Shown here: positions 3,562-62,702 of the stretch, piece by piece
Layout: each line of letters begins with the position of its first letter
Numbering within the stretch: position 1 is the first letter of the stretch
Virus record (IMG/VR): IMGVR_UViG_3300025121_000038
Span: 1 to 64,000 of that record
Origin: a virus
DNA length: 64,000 nucleotides
Reading direction: 5' to 3' (one strand)
Notes under the pieces: model-generated
What the model saw: the letters and a program-made list of their open reading frames with translations, nothing else
What the model was told of the DNA's origin: nothing
Database searches by the model: none
Program-made: the position numbers and the translations under genes

Positions 3562-3882
3562 TCACTCTAAAAGTTTGGTAAAATCTACACCATTACAATC
3601 GAACTTACAACTTCGTACAGATTCCCACGTAATTTCAGATGTATGATAATCTCCGCCTCCGGGACACATATTGATCTTCAGGGTGTCTAAGAGTTCAGAC
3701 AATTCAAATAATTGTACAAAGGTCAAATCACGCTTGAGTTCTGTAAGTTCAAATTTCAGATGTCCTTCAGGACCATAGTATAAAATTTCAATGGGAGTTC
3801 CTCCAAAGAAATTGCCCAAAACATAGGCAATCTTACGAAGATCCTTTTCATAATTGGTTTCAACCAGATATTGGCGTTTCAT
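3562..3882 (-). CDS. Hypothetical protein, tandem paralog of 3924..4217
   Basis: Shared motif EGHLxFxLTxL...QLxxLSxLLxTxKI...PGG...CKF.C..VDFTK. Confidence 0.7.
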   Translation of the reverse strand: MKRQYLVETNYEKDLRKIAYVLGNFFGGTPIEILYYGPEGHLKFELTELKRDLTFVQLFELSELLDTLKINMCPGGGDYHTSEITWESVRSCKFDCNGVDFTKLLE

Positions 3883-3923
3883 GACAATCCCATACTTGTT
3901 AGACTAACCTTCTAAATTTTAAT

Positions 3924-4217
3924 TCAAATTTTTGTGAAATCCACATCTTGACAATAAAATTTGCATGTATGGGTTTGTGTCCATTTGAATTTTTCTCCGC
4001 CAGGTTGAAATTGGATTTTTCTAGTATTTAGAAGGTCGGATAGCTGAGACAATTGATCAATACTCAACTTTTCATAAAGATCTGTTAATTTAAAAGTCAA
4101 ATGTCCTTCTAGAGTATACTCTAGGATGACCACAGTGGCGTCGTTAAAAAGGTTACTAATGACGGCTTCTACCTTTTTAATATTGATCTTAGGCCCTGTT
4201 TCTTTAGAAGACTTCAT
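3924..4217 (-). CDS. Hypothetical protein, tandem paralog of 3562..3882
   Basis: Shared motif as above. Confidence 0.7.
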   Translation of the reverse strand: MKSSKETGPKINIKKVEAVISNLFNDATVVILEYTLEGHLTFKLTDLYEKLSIDQLSQLSDLLNTRKIQFQPGGEKFKWTQTHTCKFYCQDVDFTKI

Positions 4218-4278
4218 AATTGATATCCTGTATTAAGGTTATTTTATTATCAACGTATGAAGTATGTCTGACATAAGA

Positions 4279-4590
4279 TTATTTCTTGATTCCTCTATGA
4301 TATTCTTTATGCCATGCTTTTACCAGGTTCTCTATATGACTTCGTAGATTATCATCTATATTAAGCAGTGATAAACTCTGTACCGTTGAATCTCGACAAA
4401 ATAAAAGTATCCTCGCTCTATGAGCTTTATTCTCTACCCTGGAGGCAGATTTCATAAGCTCAAAGTAATTGGTAAGGTACCTACCTACTTTTTGCCTGAC
4501 ATGTTTTCTTTGCTTCTCATTTACTATTTCGGCTATGATGTTGGATATAGATCTGGAAACAGGCATTCCACCATGAGTGTACGGATCCAT
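4279..4590 (-). CDS. Hypothetical protein, paralog of 26186..26491
   Basis: RARILLFCRDS vs RQRIAILCRDE; strong GGAGGAG RBS. Confidence 0.65.
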   Translation of the reverse strand: MDPYTHGGMPVSRSISNIIAEIVNEKQRKHVRQKVGRYLTNYFELMKSASRVENKAHRARILLFCRDSTVQSLSLLNIDDNLRSHIENLVKAWHKEYHRGIKK

Positions 4591-4592
4591 GT

Positions 4593-4823
4593 TTACTCCT
4601 CCTTTTCATTCTTGTTCTGGGTACGCGGACGTCCAGCTATAACAAATTTGCGAGACAAATGACTCGTTCGTCTCTCACAACGAGATATTCTACGTTTCCA
4701 CTTAGCCCTTGAACGAGCAACATGTGTTGAATTACACCCCGCTCCTGGGTTACTGTTTTCCCATCTCGGACCATGCTCTGTCCGCTTTTCGTCGCCTGTC
4801 CTTGGGTTATTTCTATTACTCAT
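4593..4823 (-). CDS. Small basic hypothetical protein
   Basis: 76-aa Arg/Lys-rich ORF directly after rtcB. Confidence 0.55.
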   Translation of the reverse strand: MSNRNNPRTGDEKRTEHGPRWENSNPGAGCNSTHVARSRAKWKRRISRCERRTSHLSRKFVIAGRPRTQNKNEKEE

Positions 4824-4826
4824 GCC

Positions 4827-7220
4827 TTACCCTTTATATGTCATAATCGGCTTGAGACTAGCCACTGGGGCTATGAGTCTGGCCTTTACTTGAGCCTCTA
4901 TGACAGGGCCTATAGGTTTATATGCGTCTGGCCTTTCTTCTATAATACGATCTTCATTGAGGGTTATACACTCGAAACATCGTTCTTCATTATGCTCTTG
5001 AGAAGAACCTTTACGTCCCATCTCAAATCTTGTTTTAGATCGCCCAGCTCCATGAGAACATGATGATACATAATCTTGATTTGCTCGTCCTATCATTAGA
5101 TAGGATCTGTCCCCCATAGAGCCTGGTATCAAAACTGGTTGTCCAAGATGAGCTGGAGTGGCACCTTTTCTATGTACATTCATGTTGTCTTCTTGAAAGA
5201 CAACATTGTGGGGCAAATCATATATAAGAGGAGCTTCCATATCTCCAAATATTTCTCTCACTCGGATCCTTATCAACTCTGCCAGCAACAGTCTATTCAC
5301 ATATGCATAATTTGCAGCAGTATGCATAGCCGTTAGATAATTAGAAACTGCCTCGCCGTGCAGAGGAAAAATTCCAGAAGAAGGATATTTCTTGTCTTTA
5401 GGCCATTGTTCTTTAGCTATTTCTGACCATCTACGCCCAATATGATTGCCTACAGCTCTTGAACCAGTATGCAACATGAATGTGATTTGTCCAGGTTTAA
5501 TGCCCCATTGGTATGCTATAGAATTATCAAATACTTCATCTACTACCTGGAACTCTGCAAAATGGTTCCCACCACCAAGAGTCGCTAAACTGCCGTCTCG
5601 AATATATTGGCGATCCTCAGGAAGCAAATCCTCGGGAGCGTATTTTTTATCCCCTATTTCACTTCCACGACGATATATTTTAGATAACTCTTGAGCTATT
5701 TGATCAAGGTTAGATTTTGCAAGCGTACCTAATGTCTCTTTGGATGATTGTCGTATATCATCTAACCAAGCTTCTACACCCCACTCAAATATATTAGACA
5801 TGGCACTCAAAGTCATAGGAAAATCTCTTGTGCCTAAAAGCAAATCACCTTTCAATAGAGAGGTTAGTTCTTTCTTACCCGACATAAATCTGTCTAAAGC
5901 TAAGTCCATGATATGCAAACGCATTCCGCAATTATGAACAAATACTCCGGCAGACAGAGCAAAATTTTCATGTTCTGGAACTCGTAAACAATAAACAGAT
6001 TCTTTTTCCTCTAGAATTTCTACAGCCAACACTTTATGATTTGTGCCATCACTTTCAGTGGGTTTGCATCTATTCACATGATTTCGTACAAAAAATCCGC
6101 TTCGGCCTTGTTTACCACAATGAGGACAAGTGCGATATCTAAGAGCAACTTCAGAACTTTTGGCTTTTCCTTTTTCACTCAAATTATAAGCTTCTAAATA
6201 TTGCTTACCTCGTTGTCCAGCTTTAGAGCATGCTTCTGCCCATTCCTCTTTTCGTTCAGTCCTATATGCTATTAAATTTTTGGTTCCTCGTTTAGAATAA
6301 AACTCATAACCTTCTGGAGTCTGAGCTTTCTTTTTTATGGCGTCTAATCTCTTTTGTTCAAATTCTGGAGATTGCCAAACTTCGTTCCTACATTCTAGAG
6401 TGTGGTATCTTCTATGATCTTTATGACCCATAAATTTCAAATTTTCTGGGCTATTATTTGCTTTATCAAAATTGATATGATGAATAATGGTTTTTTGCCC
6501 ATCAAACGAGGGTATGGGACCTAAAACATTCGTTCTAGCTAACGCCCAATGAGACCTTTGCCACTTATTTAAATAAGGCTGTTTTACAAGAACGTATCCG
6601 TCTTTGTCCTTTTCACTATAGAAAGGCATCAAAGAATCTGAAACTTTCAAATCTCTCGCTTTCACCCAAGATCCATCTCTTCTCATGAATAGGTGGTCTG
6701 ACGTACACTTAATATATTGGTTATTATCTAAAGTTATTTTTAGAAGAGAAGCATCATCTCGTGTTTTTATAGCTGTTGCTTTAGATCCTGTAATTTTATG
6801 ATCTGTTGTAATAGACCACACCCAAAATTCTCCCCCATGCTCAAATAATTCTTGTAAAGTCTTTTCTGTTCCATCCAGTAAGGGAATTTTTGTGTCTCCT
6901 GTAAAACAGTTTATATCCGTGCCCGTTGCTTGGGGTATGACTATTTCTTCGTCGGTAGCTATAACAGACCCTATAGGTACAACGTCACCTGGATGGAAAT
7001 CCGGAGTGGCACATGCTTTGACCACGACTCCTCCGTCAGGGTGACGGACAGAAGCAAAATTGATGAGTTGATCAACCGCCTTCTTCTCTAATGGTAAGCC
7101 GTCAGGGAGGAGAATACGTATAGTCGGATGCAAATCCGACGTAATAAAATAGACGTCACCATCTCTTTCAAGTTGGATTCCGTCTTTAAGATATGCTTTT
7201 TTAATTCGGTCAAATGACAC
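4827..7220 (-). CDS. rtcB: RtcB-family RNA ligase containing an intein
   Basis: Motifs PDFHPG..PIG, DIN/CG, TLGGGNHFAE, HTGSR, HN, HRKGA, IPGSMG, SHGAGR, E.P.AYK and C-terminal YKG. Confidence 0.92.
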   Translation of the reverse strand: MSFDRIKKAYLKDGIQLERDGDVYFITSDLHPTIRILLPDGLPLEKKAVDQLINFASVRHPDGGVVVKACATPDFHPGDVVPIGSVIATDEEIVIPQATGTDINCFTGDTKIPLLDGTEKTLQELFEHGGEFWVWSITTDHKITGSKATAIKTRDDASLLKITLDNNQYIKCTSDHLFMRRDGSWVKARDLKVSDSLMPFYSEKDKDGYVLVKQPYLNKWQRSHWALARTNVLGPIPSFDGQKTIIHHINFDKANNSPENLKFMGHKDHRRYHTLECRNEVWQSPEFEQKRLDAIKKKAQTPEGYEFYSKRGTKNLIAYRTERKEEWAEACSKAGQRGKQYLEAYNLSEKGKAKSSEVALRYRTCPHCGKQGRSGFFVRNHVNRCKPTESDGTNHKVLAVEILEEKESVYCLRVPEHENFALSAGVFVHNCGMRLHIMDLALDRFMSGKKELTSLLKGDLLLGTRDFPMTLSAMSNIFEWGVEAWLDDIRQSSKETLGTLAKSNLDQIAQELSKIYRRGSEIGDKKYAPEDLLPEDRQYIRDGSLATLGGGNHFAEFQVVDEVFDNSIAYQWGIKPGQITFMLHTGSRAVGNHIGRRWSEIAKEQWPKDKKYPSSGIFPLHGEAVSNYLTAMHTAANYAYVNRLLLAELIRIRVREIFGDMEAPLIYDLPHNVVFQEDNMNVHRKGATPAHLGQPVLIPGSMGDRSYLMIGRANQDYVSSCSHGAGRSKTRFEMGRKGSSQEHNEERCFECITLNEDRIIEERPDAYKPIGPVIEAQVKARLIAPVASLKPIMTYKG
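5931..6908 (-). mobile_element. Intein (326 aa) with HNH-like endonuclease in RtcB
   Basis: Starts CFTGDT, has block B CTSDH, ends VYCLRVPEHENFALSAGVFVHN before the +1 Cys; internal IHHINFDKANNSPENL HNH motif. Confidence 0.92.
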
Positions 7221-14507: not shown

Positions 14508-15173
14508 ATGATAAAATTATTTACAGAAGAAGAGTATAAGGCCGTTAAGTCTCGTCACACTTTACCCTTACAATGTATGAATTGTGGAACCATTTTTTAT
14601 AAAACTCGTATAGACATACATCTGGCAGAACTAGCTAAAAGAAATCAAAAATATGAATTTTGCAATAGATCTTGCAATAATAAGAAAAGATGTACCGTTT
14701 GTTGTAAACAATGTTTAAAAATATTTGAAAAAACTACGGGTGAAATGAAAAAGGGTTCCAATCATTTTTGTACTAAATCCTGTGCAGCAAAATACAACAA
14801 TGCTCATAAAACAAAGGGTACAAGAAGATCTAAACTTGAACAATGGTTAGAAATAAAATTACTTGAACTTTATCCAGACCTTGAGTTTCACTTTAACAAG
14901 ACAGACGCTATTAATGCTGAACTTGATATTTATATTCCAAGTCTTAAACTGGCTTTTGAATTAAACGGTATCTTTCATTATGAACCAATCTATGGTCAAG
15001 ATAAATTAGATAAAATTCAATCTAATGACCACAGAAAATTTCAAGCATGTATAGAACACAATATATCACTTTGTATTATAGATACAACATCACTCCTTCA
15101 TTTTAAAGAAAATAATGCGATAATATTTTTAAATATATTAACATCAATCCTTAATGACGGGCCCAGGACTTGA
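14508..15173 (+). CDS. Free-standing Zn-finger plus Vsr/DUF559-like endonuclease inserted at a tRNA T-loop
   Basis: CxxC clusters then ELDIYIPSLKLAFELNGIFHY; C-terminal half nearly identical to 32997..33710. Confidence 0.8.
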   Translation: MIKLFTEEEYKAVKSRHTLPLQCMNCGTIFYKTRIDIHLAELAKRNQKYEFCNRSCNNKKRCTVCCKQCLKIFEKTTGEMKKGSNHFCTKSCAAKYNNAHKTKGTRRSKLEQWLEIKLLELYPDLEFHFNKTDAINAELDIYIPSLKLAFELNGIFHYEPIYGQDKLDKIQSNDHRKFQACIEHNISLCIIDTTSLLHFKENNAIIFLNILTSILNDGPRT

Positions 15174-15233
15174 ACCTGGAAGCTCGTAAGCCACCCTGTT
15201 AGGGGTTGAGTTTACCAATTTCTCCAGCCCGCC
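15155..15233 (-). tRNA. tRNA-Leu-like with an aberrant 6-nt anticodon loop (CTAACA), no encoded CCA
   Basis: Cloverleaf GGCGGGC.../GCCCGTC-A, long variable arm, TTCAAGT T-loop. Confidence 0.65.
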
Positions 15234-25303: not shown

Positions 25304-26155
25304 ATGCAAAAACAATATATTAAGAGTAGGCGTAAAGATCAAAAAAGAGAGATGCTAACCTACAAAGGTGGATCATGTCAATTATGTAATTACGCGATAT
25401 GTGCTAGAGCAATGGATTTTCATCACAAAGACCCTACTCAAAAAGACTTCGGAATATGTGGTATGAATAAATCTTGGGAAGAAATTAAGACAGAATTAGA
25501 CAAATGTATTTTAGTCTGTAAAAACTGTCACGGAGAAATACACGATGGCCTTCACGACCAATTTAAAATACTCAATGTAAAAGTGCGCTCAAACTATGCT
25601 AATAGAATATATTATTATCGAAAACAATTCAAACACAATTTAGTCCAATACGCGGGTGGGTATTGTGCTATTTGTACTTACAAAAAGAGTTACAGATGTT
25701 TATCTTTTCACCATTTGAACAAATCAACAAAAACATTTGAAATAAATGAAGCTACTCAGAAAACTTTGGAAGAGATAGCAGTAGAACTTGATAAATGTAT
25801 TTTATTATGTCTAAACTGTCACTCTGAGGTACATGACGAAATTTCTGACATAAGCGATGTTAAACCAATAAAAAATCTTGAATATCTCGATATCATAAAA
25901 TCTCTCATTCAAAAAGATGAAAAACCATTAATAATAGAAAAATATTATTGTTTAGATTGTAATGTGGAAAAGAAAACATCCGCCGCAAGATGTGTTCCTT
26001 GCAGTCAAAAATACCAAGAGAAAGTGAAATGGCCAGAAATAGAAGAATTGATAGAAATGTTAAAAACAAGTAATAAAGTGTTATTGGCTAAACAACTCGG
26101 TGTTTCAGAAGCTGCTATACGGAAAAGGTTGTCAAAATATATGTTCAATACATGA
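25304..26155 (+). CDS. Double-HNH endonuclease with C-terminal HTH, inserted in a tRNA anticodon loop
   Basis: Two GGxCxxCxY...FHH...ELDKC.L.C.NCH.E.H units; KWP...AKQLGVSEAAIRKRL. Confidence 0.85.
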   Translation: MQKQYIKSRRKDQKREMLTYKGGSCQLCNYAICARAMDFHHKDPTQKDFGICGMNKSWEEIKTELDKCILVCKNCHGEIHDGLHDQFKILNVKVRSNYANRIYYYRKQFKHNLVQYAGGYCAICTYKKSYRCLSFHHLNKSTKTFEINEATQKTLEEIAVELDKCILLCLNCHSEVHDEISDISDVKPIKNLEYLDIIKSLIQKDEKPLIIEKYYCLDCNVEKKTSAARCVPCSQKYQEKVKWPEIEELIEMLKTSNKVLLAKQLGVSEAAIRKRLSKYMFNT

Positions 26156-32942: not shown

Positions 32943-32965
32943 TGGGGTGCTATGAGAGAGTTGAA
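32943..32965 (-). repeat. Displaced tRNA-His 3' end with CCA; 21-bp direct repeat of 33650..33670
   Basis: gggtgctatgagagagttgaa is identical at both sites. Confidence 0.92.
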
Positions 32966-32996
32966 AACTAATTTTCTCTTTATAACTTACCCATTT

Positions 32997-33710
32997 ATGA
33001 TAAAAAAATTTACATATGACCAATATAACCAAGCTAAAAGTCTAGATAATCTATTACTAGAATGTCTATTTTGTAAACAAGATTTTCTATGTACAAAACG
33101 AAATATTAAGCATGCATTACTCAACTCAACAAAAGACAAACGAAAATTCTGTACATTAAAATGTAGCAAAGAATATTTAAAGTCACTAAACTTCATTATT
33201 TGTTCTTATTGTAACAATAAATCACATAGACAAAAAGCTCTTATAAATGTTGGCAATAATTTTTGTACTCAATCATGTGCGGCAAAATACAATAATGCAC
33301 ATAAAACAAAAGGTACTAGAAGATCCAAACTTGAACAATGGTTAGAAATAAAATTACTTGAACTTTATCCAGACTTAGAATTTCACTTCAATAAAACAGA
33401 TGCTATAAATGCTGAGCTTGACATATACATACCAAGTCTTAAACTGGCTTTTGAGCTAAATGGTATCTTTCATTATGAACCAATCTATGGTCAAGATAAA
33501 TTAGATAAAATTCAATCTAATGATCACAGAAAATTTCAAGCATGTATAGAACATGACATATCCCTTTGTATTATTGATACATCAAATCAACTTTATTTCA
33601 AAGAACAAACATCTAAAAAATATTTAGACATTATAACTAATATAATTGAGGGTGCTATGAGAGAGTTGAACTCTCGTATTCGGATCCACAAACCGACGTT
33701 CTACCGTTGA
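32997..33710 (+). CDS. Free-standing Zn-finger plus Vsr/DUF559-like endonuclease inserted at the tRNA-His T-loop
   Basis: Start MIKKFT parallels MIKLFT of 14508; near-identical nuclease half; C-terminus reads antisense through tRNA-His. Confidence 0.8.
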   Translation: MIKKFTYDQYNQAKSLDNLLLECLFCKQDFLCTKRNIKHALLNSTKDKRKFCTLKCSKEYLKSLNFIICSYCNNKSHRQKALINVGNNFCTQSCAAKYNNAHKTKGTRRSKLEQWLEIKLLELYPDLEFHFNKTDAINAELDIYIPSLKLAFELNGIFHYEPIYGQDKLDKIQSNDHRKFQACIEHDISLCIIDTSNQLYFKEQTSKKYLDIITNIIEGAMRELNSRIRIHKPTFYR

Positions 33711-35999: not shown

Positions 36000-36290
36000 T
36001 CATTCAGACAAATTCTTGAACCCAGGTAAAAATCGAACCCCCACCGTCGCAACAATAGAAGGTCTCCATACCATGCCACATTTTTGACATGCATGAGTAT
36101 GATGTGCTTTTGTTTCAAACTCACCCGTATCTATATGTCTTTCGCCACATGAAGGACACCATAGCAACATCGGTATAGGCCTGGACAATACAAAGACTGC
36201 CTCTGTAAGGTCTTTTAAAGTAAACAGTACAGGGGCAGTCTTAATAGTTTCTACGCCCTCAATTATCTTGCGCAGATAGTCCTGGTTCAT
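36000..36290 (-). CDS. Zn-binding hypothetical protein coupled to tuf
   Basis: [16 protein letters not shown]; ATGA overlap. Confidence 0.6.
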
Positions 36291-37480
36291 ACATTACCAA
36301 TATTAGTGATCACCCCAGCCCCAATGGTACGACTACCTTCTCTAACCGCGAAGCGAGAGTTCACCTCAAAGCCAGCTGGTTTATTCAGTTCAACCTTGAT
36401 AGTAGTACGGTCACCTGGGTTGACACACTCTAACCCTTCTGGAAGAGTGATTACCCCAGTAACATCTGTAGTACCGAAATAGAATTGAGGTCTATACCCA
36501 CTCTTGAATGGTTTCTCACGACCCCCTTCTTTTGCGGTCAAGGTATAAAACTCAGCCTCGAATTTTGCATTGCTTCTAATAGACCCAGGAGCGGCCAAAA
36601 CTTGACCTCTCCGTATCTCGTCTCTCTTAACCCCACGGAGCAACATACCGATGTTCATACCAGCAAGACCTTCCGGTACATCTTTACGGAACATCTGGAC
36701 TCCTGTAACGACTACCTTTCTGGGTTTGCCACCCTCGTCTTCGGTAAGACCTACTATCTCAACCTCGTCTCCGATCTTGACCTTACCACGGTCAATACGG
36801 CCTGTAGCTACCGTACCACGCCCAGATATTGTAACAACGTCTTCTACCGACATTCGGAACGGAGAGTCCATATCTCTAACAGGCTCTGGAATAGTATTGT
36901 CCAAAGCATCCATCAATTCTGGGATGGATCCGATCCAAGGGCTAGTCCAGTCTCCTGCATTAGCCGCTTCAAGAGCCTTAAGAGCGGATCCTCTCACGAA
37001 CTTGACATCAGTATACCCATAGCTCTCGAGGATTTCGTTTGCTTCCATTTCTACGAGAGACAAGAGCTCTTCGTCTTCACAACGATCAACTTTGTTCACG
37101 AAAACAACGATATGCTTTACCCCTACTTGAGATGCAAGCAATACGTGTTCCTTGGTTTGGGGCTCAGGTCCTTGAGATCCATCGACCAAAAGTATAGCAC
37201 CGTCCATCTGAGCAGCACCCGTGATCATGTTCTTGATGTAGTCAGCATGTCCTGGACAGTCAATATGTGCATAATGTCTGTTCTTTGTTACATACTCTAC
37301 GTGAGCGGTATTGATTGTAATACCACGAGCTTTTTCTTCAGGAGCTTTATCTATTTGATCATAGTTAAGGGCTTGCCCACCATGTTCTTTAGCCTGTATC
37401 TTTGTGATAGCTGCCGTAAGAGTGGTTTTACCATGGTCGATGTGACCTATACTTCCGACTGTTAACATTACTCTACCCAT
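36287..37480 (-). CDS. tuf: Translation elongation factor Tu
   Basis: [53 protein letters not shown]; GGAG RBS before the ATG at 37480. Confidence 0.97.
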
Positions 37481-37581
37481 CTTTTTCTCCAAATTTAATT
37501 TACCACAGAACAACTAACGGATAATAACAATATTCCTTTTATGAAGTACTTCATCGAACCTAAAATTCATGGAGACTTCAT

Positions 37582-38499
37582 TTGCCAAATAACATTTCTA
37601 CACGCACTAGGATTTGTCCAAATTGTCAAAACTCATATCTCTTAAATGTGACTATTGACGGAGAACGAATAGCCCTCCACAAACGTAAATATTGCTTAGA
37701 TTGTTCTCCTTTTATCAAAGGTAGCAACAAAATAAGTAACCGAAAGACCTTAGAAAAACACAACAAGTCTGAATCTTTTTGCAAAGAATGTAACTCAATA
37801 AAACCTATAGATCAATTCTATTTTAGGCACAGTGGACTACCCTTGTCTATCTGTAAAAAATGTCATCACGAAGAATCTAAACAACAAACTAAATCTTATA
37901 AGGAGCAGGCAGTCGCTTATAAAGGCGGATCCTGCGAGCTTTGTAATTATAGCAAATGTTTAGATGCAATGGACTTTCATCACAAAGACCCTACTCAAAA
38001 AGATTTCACTTTTAGTAGAAGATTTCCATGTTTCAAAACAGCTAAACCAGAACTCGATAAATGTATGCTCTTATGTGCCAACTGTCACCGCGAAGAACAT
38101 CAGCGTATGGCAGACATAGATTTTAAAAATTCTGACCACGGGCAGCTTGACCCATTAGGCCATAGATGTCGTAGATGCAACCTACATAAAACTATAAATT
38201 CTTTCCCTATAGATAAAGGAATACCAAAACCTTGGTGTAAGTCATGTACTCGTTTATATGGTAGACAAGGTAGAGCAAAAATCAAACAAGAAATTATCTC
38301 CTATAAAGGAGGGGTTTGTGAAATATGCTCCTATAACAAAAACATTGCTGCATTAGATTTACATCACAAAGACCCAACTCAAAAATCTTTTGGCATTGCC
38401 GAAATGAGAGATAAATATCTCTCTGAAATCAAAGATGAGGTAGATAAGTGCATTTTAACCTGTGTAAACTGCCATAGAGAACAACACGTTAAACCTTAA
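37582..38499 (+). CDS. Double-HNH endonuclease inserted into the 5' end of tuf
   Basis: Two YKGG.C..C.Y...HHKDPTQK.F...DKC.L.C.NCHRE.H units; same family as 25304..26155. Confidence 0.85.
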   Translation: MPNNISTRTRICPNCQNSYLLNVTIDGERIALHKRKYCLDCSPFIKGSNKISNRKTLEKHNKSESFCKECNSIKPIDQFYFRHSGLPLSICKKCHHEESKQQTKSYKEQAVAYKGGSCELCNYSKCLDAMDFHHKDPTQKDFTFSRRFPCFKTAKPELDKCMLLCANCHREEHQRMADIDFKNSDHGQLDPLGHRCRRCNLHKTINSFPIDKGIPKPWCKSCTRLYGRQGRAKIKQEIISYKGGVCEICSYNKNIAALDLHHKDPTQKSFGIAEMRDKYLSEIKDEVDKCILTCVNCHREQHVKP

Positions 38500-38542
38500 T
38501 CTCCACGTGTCCTACCGTCCCTGTGTTAACATGAGTCTTCAT
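38489..38542 (-). pseudogene. tuf: Displaced original N-terminus of EF-Tu (MKTHVNTGTVGHVE...)
   Basis: AAGGA RBS then ATG AAG ACT CAT GTT AAC ACA GGG ACG GTA GGA CAC GTG GA, matching the EF-Tu HVNxGTxGHVD motif. Confidence 0.85.
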
Positions 38543-38569
38543 AAGGTCCTTTCTAGGTTTTTTGATTAT

Positions 38570-38630
38570 GCAAACATTTGGATTCGAACCCTTGACCTAT
38601 TTAGTCATCATACCTATCTCATATGTCTGC
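38570..38630 (-). ncRNA. Mini tRNA-like RNA (T-loop plus closing stem)
   Basis: GCAGACAT/ATGTTTGC stem with GG-TTCGAAT-CC; starts right after a CCA. Confidence 0.45.
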
Positions 38631-38709
38631 TGGTGCCGGAAGTGGGGTTCGAACCCACACTGTCCACCTTCTGAAGATGGCGACTCCTTGCCAATTGGTC
38701 TATTCCGGC
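38631..38709 (-). tRNA. tRNA-Leu(CAG), short variable loop
   Basis: CCATC-TTCAGAA-GGTGG, 5-nt variable loop ACAGT, ACCA. Confidence 0.88.
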
Positions 38710-38715
38710 ATATAT

Positions 38716-39176
38716 TTATTCTACTGTCGTAACATAAGTACGAACAATACGTTCATATCTCTCAAGCCTTACTAACTTTATTCTGATATTATTTTTCTCC
38801 CCAAATTCGACAGCTCGTTGTTTCAACAATTGTAACACTCTTTGATTTCTTAGAGTAAAGTCTCCTTCATCTTCTGTATCTGAGCTAAAAAGATTGCTAC
38901 ATCTTTGCAACCTTCTCCAGTTATAGTACAAACAACAGACCCGTATTCACTATACACATAATCGAGTTCAAATATGGGATCATACTCTTTAGATTCTGGA
39001 AAATGCTTATGCCAGAATTTCTTGGCATCCTTTGCATATTTCTCACATTTCCCATGGTAGTGTTCGCCAACATAACCAGTAAGATATGAGGTCATATCTC
39101 GTTCGAAATTACCAGCATAACTGTCCGTCTCTATGATCAATGCCTGTGATATTTGTTTTGCAAAATTTGATACCAT
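38716..39176 (-). CDS. Hypothetical protein, possibly frameshifted across two overlapping ORFs
   Basis: ORFs 38850..39176 (GGAGG RBS) and 38716..38931 overlap by 82 nt in different frames. Confidence 0.45.
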
Positions 39177-39344
39177 TTAATCCTCCATCAGATCATACCA
39201 GGAAACAATAGGCTGAGCAAAAGCTTTCAAGTTAGACATGTACGTATCTAACTGACCTTTCAATCTAATTCTTTCTTCATCTTCCAATCCAAACTGGATT
39301 GCGTCTTCTAATGAGTCATGTTCACTAGAAGATCCATTCTCTTG

Positions 39345-39539
39345 TCAGCCCCATCCAGTATAATCACAACCAGCTCTGACTACACCATATTTGCCATTCT
39401 GAAGACAAAATAGACCTATCCAATTAGGTCCATCATTATCTCCATCTTCTTGAGCTATAGACTCAATGACGTCTTCTCTTGAAAAAGAAGCATATTTGAA
39501 AACTTCTGCCCAATCGGAATCGTCAATATCTAATATCAT
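39345..39539 (-). CDS. Hypothetical protein
   Basis: GGAGG RBS directly after a tRNA CCA. Confidence 0.6.
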   Translation of the reverse strand: MILDIDDSDWAEVFKYASFSREDVIESIAQEDGDNDGPNWIGLFCLQNGKYGVVRAGCDYTGWG

Positions 39540-62279: not shown

Positions 62280-62629
62280 ACTTTTCCTTTCATAGAATGT
62301 GTATTGCATCTGACTCCCAAATAATCTGATCTTGAATAAACCCATATAAGACGACATCTAAATGTATGTAATGACTAGAGGATCTACGTCTATCATCAAT
62401 ACGGTATGTACCTTGATGATATATAAATTCTAGTCCTGGATTGCTTTTATCTAAACCCCTCAATATGTTCTTTTTTCTGAGGATTATACGTGACCCTTCA
62501 GATAAAACTTCAAACCCAACAAATAGTTGATCATTACAGATAAATACAGATTATACAGAAAAGACTCTAAAGCCTCTTCTGTATAATCTGTCTCTTCTTC
62601 AAAAAGTAAGCTTAGTCTATCCATATAGG

Positions 62630-62702
62630 TGCCCCTGGTGGGTTTTGATCCCACTGCCTTGGTATTTAAAGTACCTCGCTCTTCCAATTGAGCTACAGGG
62701 AC
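62630..62702 (-). tRNA. tRNA with TTA anticodon (ochre-suppressor-like)
   Basis: GTCCCTG-TA-GCTC-AATTGGAA-GAGC-G-AGGTA-CTTTAAA-TACCA-AGGCA-GTGGG-ATCAAAA-CCCAC-CAGGGGC-A. Confidence 0.75.

Follow-up and report, generated by a model that had tools for sequence, protein, structure and literature searches.

A phage tuf locus with two starts on either side of an antisense double-HNH gene

To our knowledge, homing endonuclease genes are thought to persist within essential genes only through removal of an intron or intein or through reassembly of a split protein. How, then, is a locus to be read in which an antisense nuclease gene lies between two starts of a single gene for elongation factor Tu (EF-Tu, encoded by tuf)? 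The locus is part of the first 64 kb, here called the window, of the IMG/VR virus record IMGVR_UViG_3300025121_000038 (80,998 b; ~35% complete according to CheckV). The source of the window is a huge phage from groundwater, the record being one fragment (~81 kb). The window has 38% G+C, and its 34 tRNA genes (ARAGORN) are all on the minus strand, as are nearly all long open reading frames (ORFs). Passages of Al-Shayeb 2020 (PMC7162821) describe elongation factors, Tu included, that are encoded by huge phages.

An earlier note, made from the letters of this DNA, had described a tuf gene invaded at its P-loop by a nuclease gene, with the old N-terminus left upstream and a recoded replacement inferred to be immune to the nuclease. 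The observation is confirmed, all four parts of the arrangement being real and where the note had placed them, and the interpretation is partly supported. The anatomy of the locus is reproduced in separate assemblies, both genes belong to recognizable families and form a pair in other loci, and the working gene has a unique N-terminus whose DNA matches the abandoned start out of phase. We consider below how such a structure may have arisen.

Two starts of one tuf gene

The working EF-Tu gene lies at 36287..37480 on the minus strand (397 codons plus TGA). Its product matches the Pfam domains GTP_EFTU, D2 and D3 as well as TIGR00485, for which its score of 568.3 bits exceeds the cut-off of 522.4 and places it among the full-length members. 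A GGAG at 37490-37487 precedes the ATG by 6 nt; together with the 397-aa product, this bears out the claim of the earlier note that tuf restarts at 37480 with a GGAG ribosome-binding site (RBS) of its own. Among the G motifs visible in the translation of the working gene is SAL.

On the far side of the antisense gene, at 38489..38542 on the minus strand, the sequence reads as a stranded old tuf start, a 17-codon mini-ORF (MKTHVNTGTVGHVEIKV*). Its ATG (38542), 4 nt behind an AAAGGA, is followed by AAG ACT CAT GTT AAC ACA GGG ACG GTA GGA CAC GTG GA, and its TAA lies at 38491-38489; the EF-Tu-like start of the product reads MKTHVNTGTVGHV. The tuf-derived part covers 41 nt, from the ATG to GTG GA (38542-38502), and breaks off at the Asp codon of GHVDHGKT. 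When the 14-residue EF-Tu starts of seven phage relatives were searched against the whole 80,998-b record, the stranded piece came out on top with 11/14 identical residues (E 8.7e-6), ahead of the N-terminus of the working gene itself (6/10, E 0.055); all others had E >= 2.7. Coordinates and search thus agree with the earlier description of an EF-Tu start, equipped with an RBS and broken at this Asp codon. Between the last tuf base (38502) and the stop codon of the HNH gene (38497-38499), the junction contains 2 nt of unassigned origin (38500..38501).

A tRNA-Leu(CAG) gene (38631..38709, minus strand; called by ARAGORN, 49.8 bits for Rfam tRNA) has its 3' end 88 nt upstream of the stranded start. 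A same-strand tRNA ending <=250 nt from tuf was also found in 10 of the 21 phage tuf loci scanned for tRNAs, a set from which short or bacterial-looking loci (L006-L009 and L027) had been excluded. Since tRNA-Leu precedes the stranded start and ten of these phage loci are built alike, the tRNA marks the native position of the phage tuf. The evidence supports the reading of the stranded piece as a real tuf start at its native position, which breaks off within its G1 codons where it meets the 3' end of the HNH gene, itself intact. Between tRNA-Leu and the stranded start, at 38580-38591, there is also a T-loop-like stretch, GGATTCGAACCC, at which no tRNA was called; it may be a tRNA remnant.

The N-terminus of the working gene (37436..37480, minus strand) has been replaced, and the ten residues before DHGKT differ from the consensus at 5/10 positions. 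This block reads HVNVGTIGHV in 89 of the 119 best EF-Tu homologues, while the remaining 30 differ from it at <=2 positions, and the canonical block stands before DHGKT in 25 of 26 viral tuf loci. The working N-terminus is an outlier, unique among the 119 homologues; the stranded piece, with HVNTGTVGHV, is 2 residues off the common form. A nearly invariant strand before the GTPase P-loop thus tolerates five codons read out of frame, as described next, which makes the gene a natural experiment on EF-Tu.

At the DNA level, a repeat search and a codon table relate the two starts. A 15-nt core of the new start, AGAGTAATGTTAACA (37460..37474, minus strand), is 13/15 identical to 38524-38538 in the stranded start, which in the tuf sense reads AGACTCATGTTAACA. 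The codon phase differs between the copies: the working gene reads AGA GTA ATG TTA ACA, the stranded start (A)AG ACT CAT GTT AAC A. When it is set against a canonical start, the working one has gained +2 nt right after the ATG and +1 nt between AAC and GTC (AAC-A-GTC), so that five codons are out of frame (R-V-M-L-T in place of K-T-H-V-N) and the frame is back before G-S-I-G-H. When the new start was shuffled 5000 times, 8 of the shuffles gave a match as good as this, and so did 2 of 5000 pieces of 45 nt drawn at random from the window (p ~0.0004-0.0016). Read in this way, the working start is a canonical M-K-x-H-V-N-V-G start with a compensated +2/+1 frameshift and, within its G1 codons, three substitutions. 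The G1 strings, GGG ACG GTA GGA CAC GTG in the stranded and GGA AGT ATA GGT CAC ATC in the working copy, have 7 differences in 18 nt, of which four fall at third, two at first and one at second positions, with 3 amino-acid changes. The earlier note had quoted both strings correctly, and its statement that they differ at wobble positions holds for 4/7 of the differences; the N-terminus that it called diverged is indeed replaced and unusual, and is now described more closely as a canonical start with a compensated frameshift.

The stretch 37223-39500 is covered by Logan contigs of four runs, with 0 differing letters. These runs come from two studies and three samples, two of the samples possibly being the source of the record. 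In the independent study, two contigs per run span the junction of the new start with the HNH gene and that of the HNH gene, the stranded piece and the tRNA. Because both junctions are identical in separately assembled contigs of two studies, an assembly artefact is ruled out. No joint skipping the insert was seen in the contigs of the four runs, though contigs drop rare variants, so that its absence is unproven; the joints listed in those contigs all lie within the conserved tuf core, with a side <40, and probably come from other organisms.

A double-HNH gene paired with tuf

The gene between the two starts (37582..38499, plus strand) is antisense to tuf and to the array of tRNAs and genes around it, and encodes a putative free-standing endonuclease of 305 aa with two HNH domains. 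It begins with a TTG, 7 nt after a GGAG at 37571-37574, which aligns with the Met of its relatives. The divergent spacer between this start and that of the working tuf (37481..37581, 101 nt) contains both Shine-Dalgarno sites. The protein matches PHROG 2255, 'HNH endonuclease', over two stretches (E 9.9e-60). Residues H133 H134 N167 H169 H173 and H261 H262 N296 H298 H302 are kept in alignments of 8 and of 34 relatives, and in both halves the catalytic H/N/H positions vary little or not at all (34 aligned sequences). The double match and the conservation of both motif sets confirm the antisense double-HNH gene that had been noticed after the stranded start. The window protein itself has no match to Pfam HNH; the relative from locus L108, discussed below, does match (30.3 bits, cut-off 21.4). 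An AlphaFold2 model of the protein (pLDDT 89.8) gave weak, if consistent, matches in VIA-align, the best with Z 5.4 to Hpy99I over 41 residues and HNH nucleases at Z 2.4-3.9. Foldseek with the same model returned nothing at E <= 0.001, and a PDB sequence search returned McrA alone, at E 0.29. The gene is intact, with both catalytic motif sets present. It has the HNH catalytic motif (beta-beta-alpha-metal) and its own start signals outside any intron or intein, and with the patchy presence described below these features would class it as a free-standing homing endonuclease.

The HNH family is large: 1619 of the 1829 candidates scored are relatives at E <= 0.001. Viral contigs were scanned with an 8-sequence alignment, and bacterial and archaeal genomes and metagenome contigs with a 4-sequence subfamily alignment. 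A tuf gene was present in two of the 80 metagenome loci with HNH relatives, and these are exactly the two closest, L108 and L109, whose HNH proteins are 51% (residues 1-302) and 46% (1-304) identical to that of the window; another relative, the protein P0003, is 53% identical. No tuf stood beside the more distant HNH relatives in 80 viral and 38 bacterial or archaeal loci. Since in these loci tuf is found only beside the two closest relatives, the tie to tuf is specific to this subfamily, and the HNH gene is no chance neighbour.

In L108 and L109, tuf lies on the opposite strand, with its start ~126 and ~131 nt from the HNH start (101 nt in the window), and encodes an EF-Tu 72% and 66% identical to that of the window. 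The sequence of the spacer is not conserved among the three. Judged by these arrangements, the HNH gene, spacer and tuf are a conserved head-to-head two-gene unit, which is patchily distributed: of 29 tuf loci, three have it (those of the window, L108 and L109), and it is absent from all 26 viral loci. The stranded piece lies just outside this unit, as expected for the leftover of an invaded genome. Both L108 and L109 have ordinary tuf starts (MSEKTHINVGTIGHVD... and MKDHVNVGTIGHVD...), and the DNA fetched for them contains no second tuf start, the L108 contig ending 185 nt past the HNH stop.

Degenerate patterns, one for each of the two N-termini (old and new), matched 0 viral contigs each, and no second genome with the same two-start structure was found in those searches. 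A scan of viral contigs with the single HNH protein gave no match. In the phage GenBank collection, tuf matches were partial (<=30% of the query), and two jumbo phages of Klebsiella have a 7% piece of the HNH gene. The 28 closest EF-Tu homologues are P0122-P0149. Two further homologues, P0155 and P0161 (ENA assemblies), are 482-aa proteins with an internal tandem duplication of ~85 residues that covers the last part of domain 2 and the first of domain 3.

Mobile nuclease genes repeatedly lie next to phage tuf. Other HNH-family genes occur in the flanks of 5 of the 26 viral tuf loci (L004, L016, L017, L020 and L025), and in L020 a GIY-YIG gene (30.3 bits) directly follows tuf. An HNH remnant in L022 (19.7 bits, below the Pfam cut-off) abuts a tuf truncated to just after the P-loop, and no G1 motif lies within 4-5 kb of that gene. 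The truncated tuf (IMGVR_UViG_3300015360_000106, 3781-5125) lacks its first ~20 codons, P-loop included, and begins ...ITAAILAVQ right after the C-terminal remnant of the HNH gene, which is on the same strand and itself directly follows a tRNA-Tyr. It is probably dead, and probably a separate instance in which an HNH gene has come to lie at the G1 region. The tuf of L020 (IMGVR_UViG_3300032782_000001, 3866-6012) has its frame broken near ...GYKPQFFF / GTTDVTG, ~60-75 codons before the end, and the GIY-YIG (SegE-like) gene starts ~50 nt ahead of the tuf stop; the frame break may reflect either an error in sequencing or a further scar linked to a nuclease.

Nuclease genes also accompany the tRNAs of the window. 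Six of the seven ORFs tested at 14-34 kb match nuclease or homing-endonuclease PHROGs, and 14000-39000 contains five nuclease genes on the plus strand, the tuf-linked one included, opposite to the strand of all 34 tRNAs. Among them are antisense genes at 14508-15173 and 32952-33710 (plus strand), with matches to the PHROG 'HNH endonuclease' and 'homing endonuclease' families. Each of the two is flanked by direct repeats, which are copies of the 3' end of the minus-strand tRNA next to it (14459-14478/15155-15174, 20 nt, 95%; 32945-32976/33650-33681, 32 nt, 84%). Overlapping the end of the gene at 14508-15173, ARAGORN also calls a tRNA with no assigned identity and a two-base 'anticodon' (aa) at 15155-15233 on the minus strand. 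A second two-HNH gene (25304-26155, plus strand, 283 aa) is 39% identical to the tuf-linked one and matches PHROG 2255 at E 6.8e-40; it lies in the tRNA region, antisense to the surrounding minus-strand genes. Elsewhere in the window, a tRNA with the anticodon TTA (62628-62702, minus strand; ARAGORN and Rfam) would read the stop codon UAA. TAA ends the mini-ORF and the HNH gene, and TGA ends tuf. A promoter and terminator scan was uninformative (8 and 2 sites vs 8.7 and 1.9 in shuffles), and no homologues of the genes flanking the locus were seen in the fetched tuf loci, except for one unrelated match in L038.

How the locus may have arisen

The history that we favour, and regard as reasonably probable, is that the HNH-tuf two-gene unit entered a resident tuf locus by repair of a double-strand break that was homologous on one side only. 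A resident tuf, directly after tRNA-Leu, would have been broken in or near its G1 (P-loop) codons. Its downstream end would have been repaired on the tuf of an incoming donor unit, and its upstream end, lacking homology past the HNH gene, would have been joined illegitimately to the 3' end of the donor HNH gene, 2 nt past the stop. This would leave 41 nt of the old start stranded, with EF-Tu now translated from the Shine-Dalgarno site and ATG of the donor side. One-sided homing with illegitimate junctions has been documented for T4 (in section 5 of PMC2988022), and the geometry of the locus is what such homing would leave.

The indel-scarred start may in addition destroy the recognition sequence of the nuclease and so keep the carrier allele uncut. 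We think that the indel-recoded start most likely protects the carrier against its own nuclease, because the frameshift would alter both the spacing and the sequence of any site spanning these codons. Cleavage in the G1 codons, the identity of donor and recipient, and immunity are points that we infer from the arrangement; the nuclease may cut at the P-loop codons, and the recoded start may be immune and host tuf be cut as well, as the earlier note had also proposed. Should immunity of the recoded start go together with cutting of canonical tuf, the locus would offer a simple, testable model of target-site immunity by indel recoding, and possibly one of a phage that replaces a host translation factor while attacking the host copy.

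Several observations weigh against this history. Block-wise identity to 30 EF-Tu relatives, none closer than 79%, gives no sign of a mosaic boundary within tuf. The searches yielded no close relative free of the HNH gene, so that the invasion event itself is unseen. The GC3 of the HNH gene (28.9%) is at the level of the genome and gives no sign of recent arrival; that of tuf is 39.5%, vs ~20-30% for most genes. No microhomology is visible at the junction of the HNH gene and the stranded piece, an ACGTG repeat ~15 nt off having been rejected, and the stranded piece accompanies just one of the three HNH-tuf pairs. The earlier note had suggested comparing the tuf starts of relatives. By this comparison the start in the window is unique, and the HNH-linked starts of L108 and L109 are canonical, with no diagnostic nucleotide differences from HNH-free alleles, and lend no help to immunity. 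Since these two carry no recoding, their own immunity, and hence a target in the G1 codons, would be unexplained. Finally, the old and new starts are ~72% identical in DNA (counted from codons), which equals the identity of the old start to an unrelated phage allele, and a very old local duplication may be the source of the two starts.

The principal competitor of one-sided entry, which we judge unlikely, is that a cassette of HNH gene, spacer, RBS and recoded 15-codon start inserts at its own G1 cleavage site. The stranded piece would then be the left homology arm for homing into an intact tuf, and the replacement start would save the gene without splicing. In keeping with this, the duplicated stretch ends at the same codon on both sides (GTG GA / ... 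ATC GA-C), the divergence of the replacement start is extreme at precisely the place that a reconstituted target would occupy, and, counting the two tRNA-end duplications, the theme of an insertion plus a spare copy would occur thrice in 39 kb of one genome. Yet L108 and L109 have a normal tuf start and no stranded piece, the form being seen in 1/3, and the pattern searches of viral contigs gave no second genome of the same structure. Pushed to its limit, this idea would amount to a third way, besides introns and inteins, of living in an essential gene, a proposal that we find doubtful. The unit would insert at its own cut site in the most conserved tuf codons and bring a re-coded spare start and RBS, the stranded start serving as homology arm and the frameshifted start as immunity determinant. 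The same trick would be played at tRNA genes, the two HNH domains would cut both strands as a monomer, and canonical (host) tuf would perhaps be cut while the recoded copy sustains translation.

It is quite improbable, in our estimate, that the locus is a scar left by ordinary recombination of two phage genomes, or by a local duplication long ago, the HNH gene being a long-standing neighbour with no role in the break. The match of HNH composition to the genome and the missing mosaic signal in tuf would suit such a scar, as would the crowding of huge-phage tRNA and translation regions with nuclease genes (6/7 ORFs at 14-34 kb), but the break lies 2 nt from the HNH stop and within the most conserved tuf codons, the indel scars of the working start fall in the same 40 nt, and L022 provides an independent HNH remnant abutting a tuf truncated just after the P-loop. 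Splicing would make the old start the real one: removal of 1063 nt between 38502 and 37437 would join GTG GA to C CAT GGT in frame and give a canonical start, although this follows from the duplication itself. We consider such an intron very improbable. At the gathering score, Rfam gave 28 matches in the whole window, all of them tRNA; at E <= 10 on 37300-38750 it gave tRNA, SNORD36 (E 1) and FIE3 (E 6.2) and no intron family, so that its covariance models detect no ribozyme core of a group I or II intron. The HNH gene is antisense to tuf, and the putative intron would hold a complete and redundant RBS, ATG and G1 motif. An assembly chimera or chance resemblance might be suspected from a piece of just 14 codons, and is hardly conceivable given an E value of 8.7e-6 in a record whose next unrelated match has E 2.7, and run-by-run contigs of two studies that are identical across both junctions. 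Two other candidates were rejected: an intein, since the HNH ORF runs opposite to tuf and the old frame meets a TAA after 17 codons, and a split gene in pieces, since the 14 stranded codons are a duplicate of the working gene's first 15 and do not complement them.

Comparison with known mobile nucleases

If the unit entered by one-sided repair, the locus would represent another natural outcome of invasion, in which the first 14 codons of the invaded gene end up as a stranded remnant while a replacement start serves in their place. Some integrating elements carry a copy of the 3' end of a tRNA gene. The insert described here is like them in bringing a replacement for the displaced gene end, with a partial duplicate remaining; it differs in involving no integrase, in displacing the 5' end of a gene for a protein, and in supplying an RBS along with the replacement.

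A whole nuclease subfamily appears to be tied to phage-encoded EF-Tu, a partner gene that goes without mention in the titles, abstract openings and passages of the literature searched. In that literature, on homing endonucleases, elongation factor Tu and phage, we found no report of a nuclease in a phage tuf, and none in which a single chain of a homing enzyme has two HNH domains; the items on two HNH domains that could be judged concern Cap5, Argonaute-HNH, TasH or two separate genes. The words 'homing' and 'intron' have 0 occurrences in the main text of PMC7162821, whose supplements may list such genes.

The closest likeness is to the 'intronless homing' of T4-type phages (seg, mob; mobE beside nrdB), in which, according to passages of PMC2988022, a stand-alone nuclease gene with its own translation signals sits beside a conserved essential gene. 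The same passages describe T4-like free-standing nucleases as patchy among relatives, with break repair that drags flanking DNA along and a cut that may be distant from the gene. Unlike seg and mob, the predicted nuclease has two HNH domains in one chain, is encoded antisense, has a phage tuf as partner and is accompanied by a stranded copy of its partner's start. Nuclease genes are also found within critical coding regions with no intron or intein, as here: section 17 of PMC2988022 lists mobE in nrdA of Aeromonas phage Aeh1, mobA in the T4 topoisomerase gene and a seg-like gene in gene 43 of phage 25. In cases of the mobE/nrdA type the pieces encode different parts and reassemble into one enzyme, whereas the 14-codon piece here is redundant and the downstream gene has its own G1.

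The proposed history is likewise similar to the one-sided homing of T4 (Parker, Belisle and Belfort 1999, as summarised in PMC2988022), with homology on one side and an illegitimate join on the other. The T4 case, as that summary has it, was a laboratory construct with an intron; the present one is natural, concerns a free-standing gene in a coding region and has no visible microhomology. Finally, as in collaborative homing (named in PMC6083498), such as that of F-CphI and the psbA intron, the nuclease gene lies just upstream of its presumed target and the carrier is altered in conserved codons. Unlike in that system, there is no intron here, and the alteration consists of a compensated frameshift together with substitutions.

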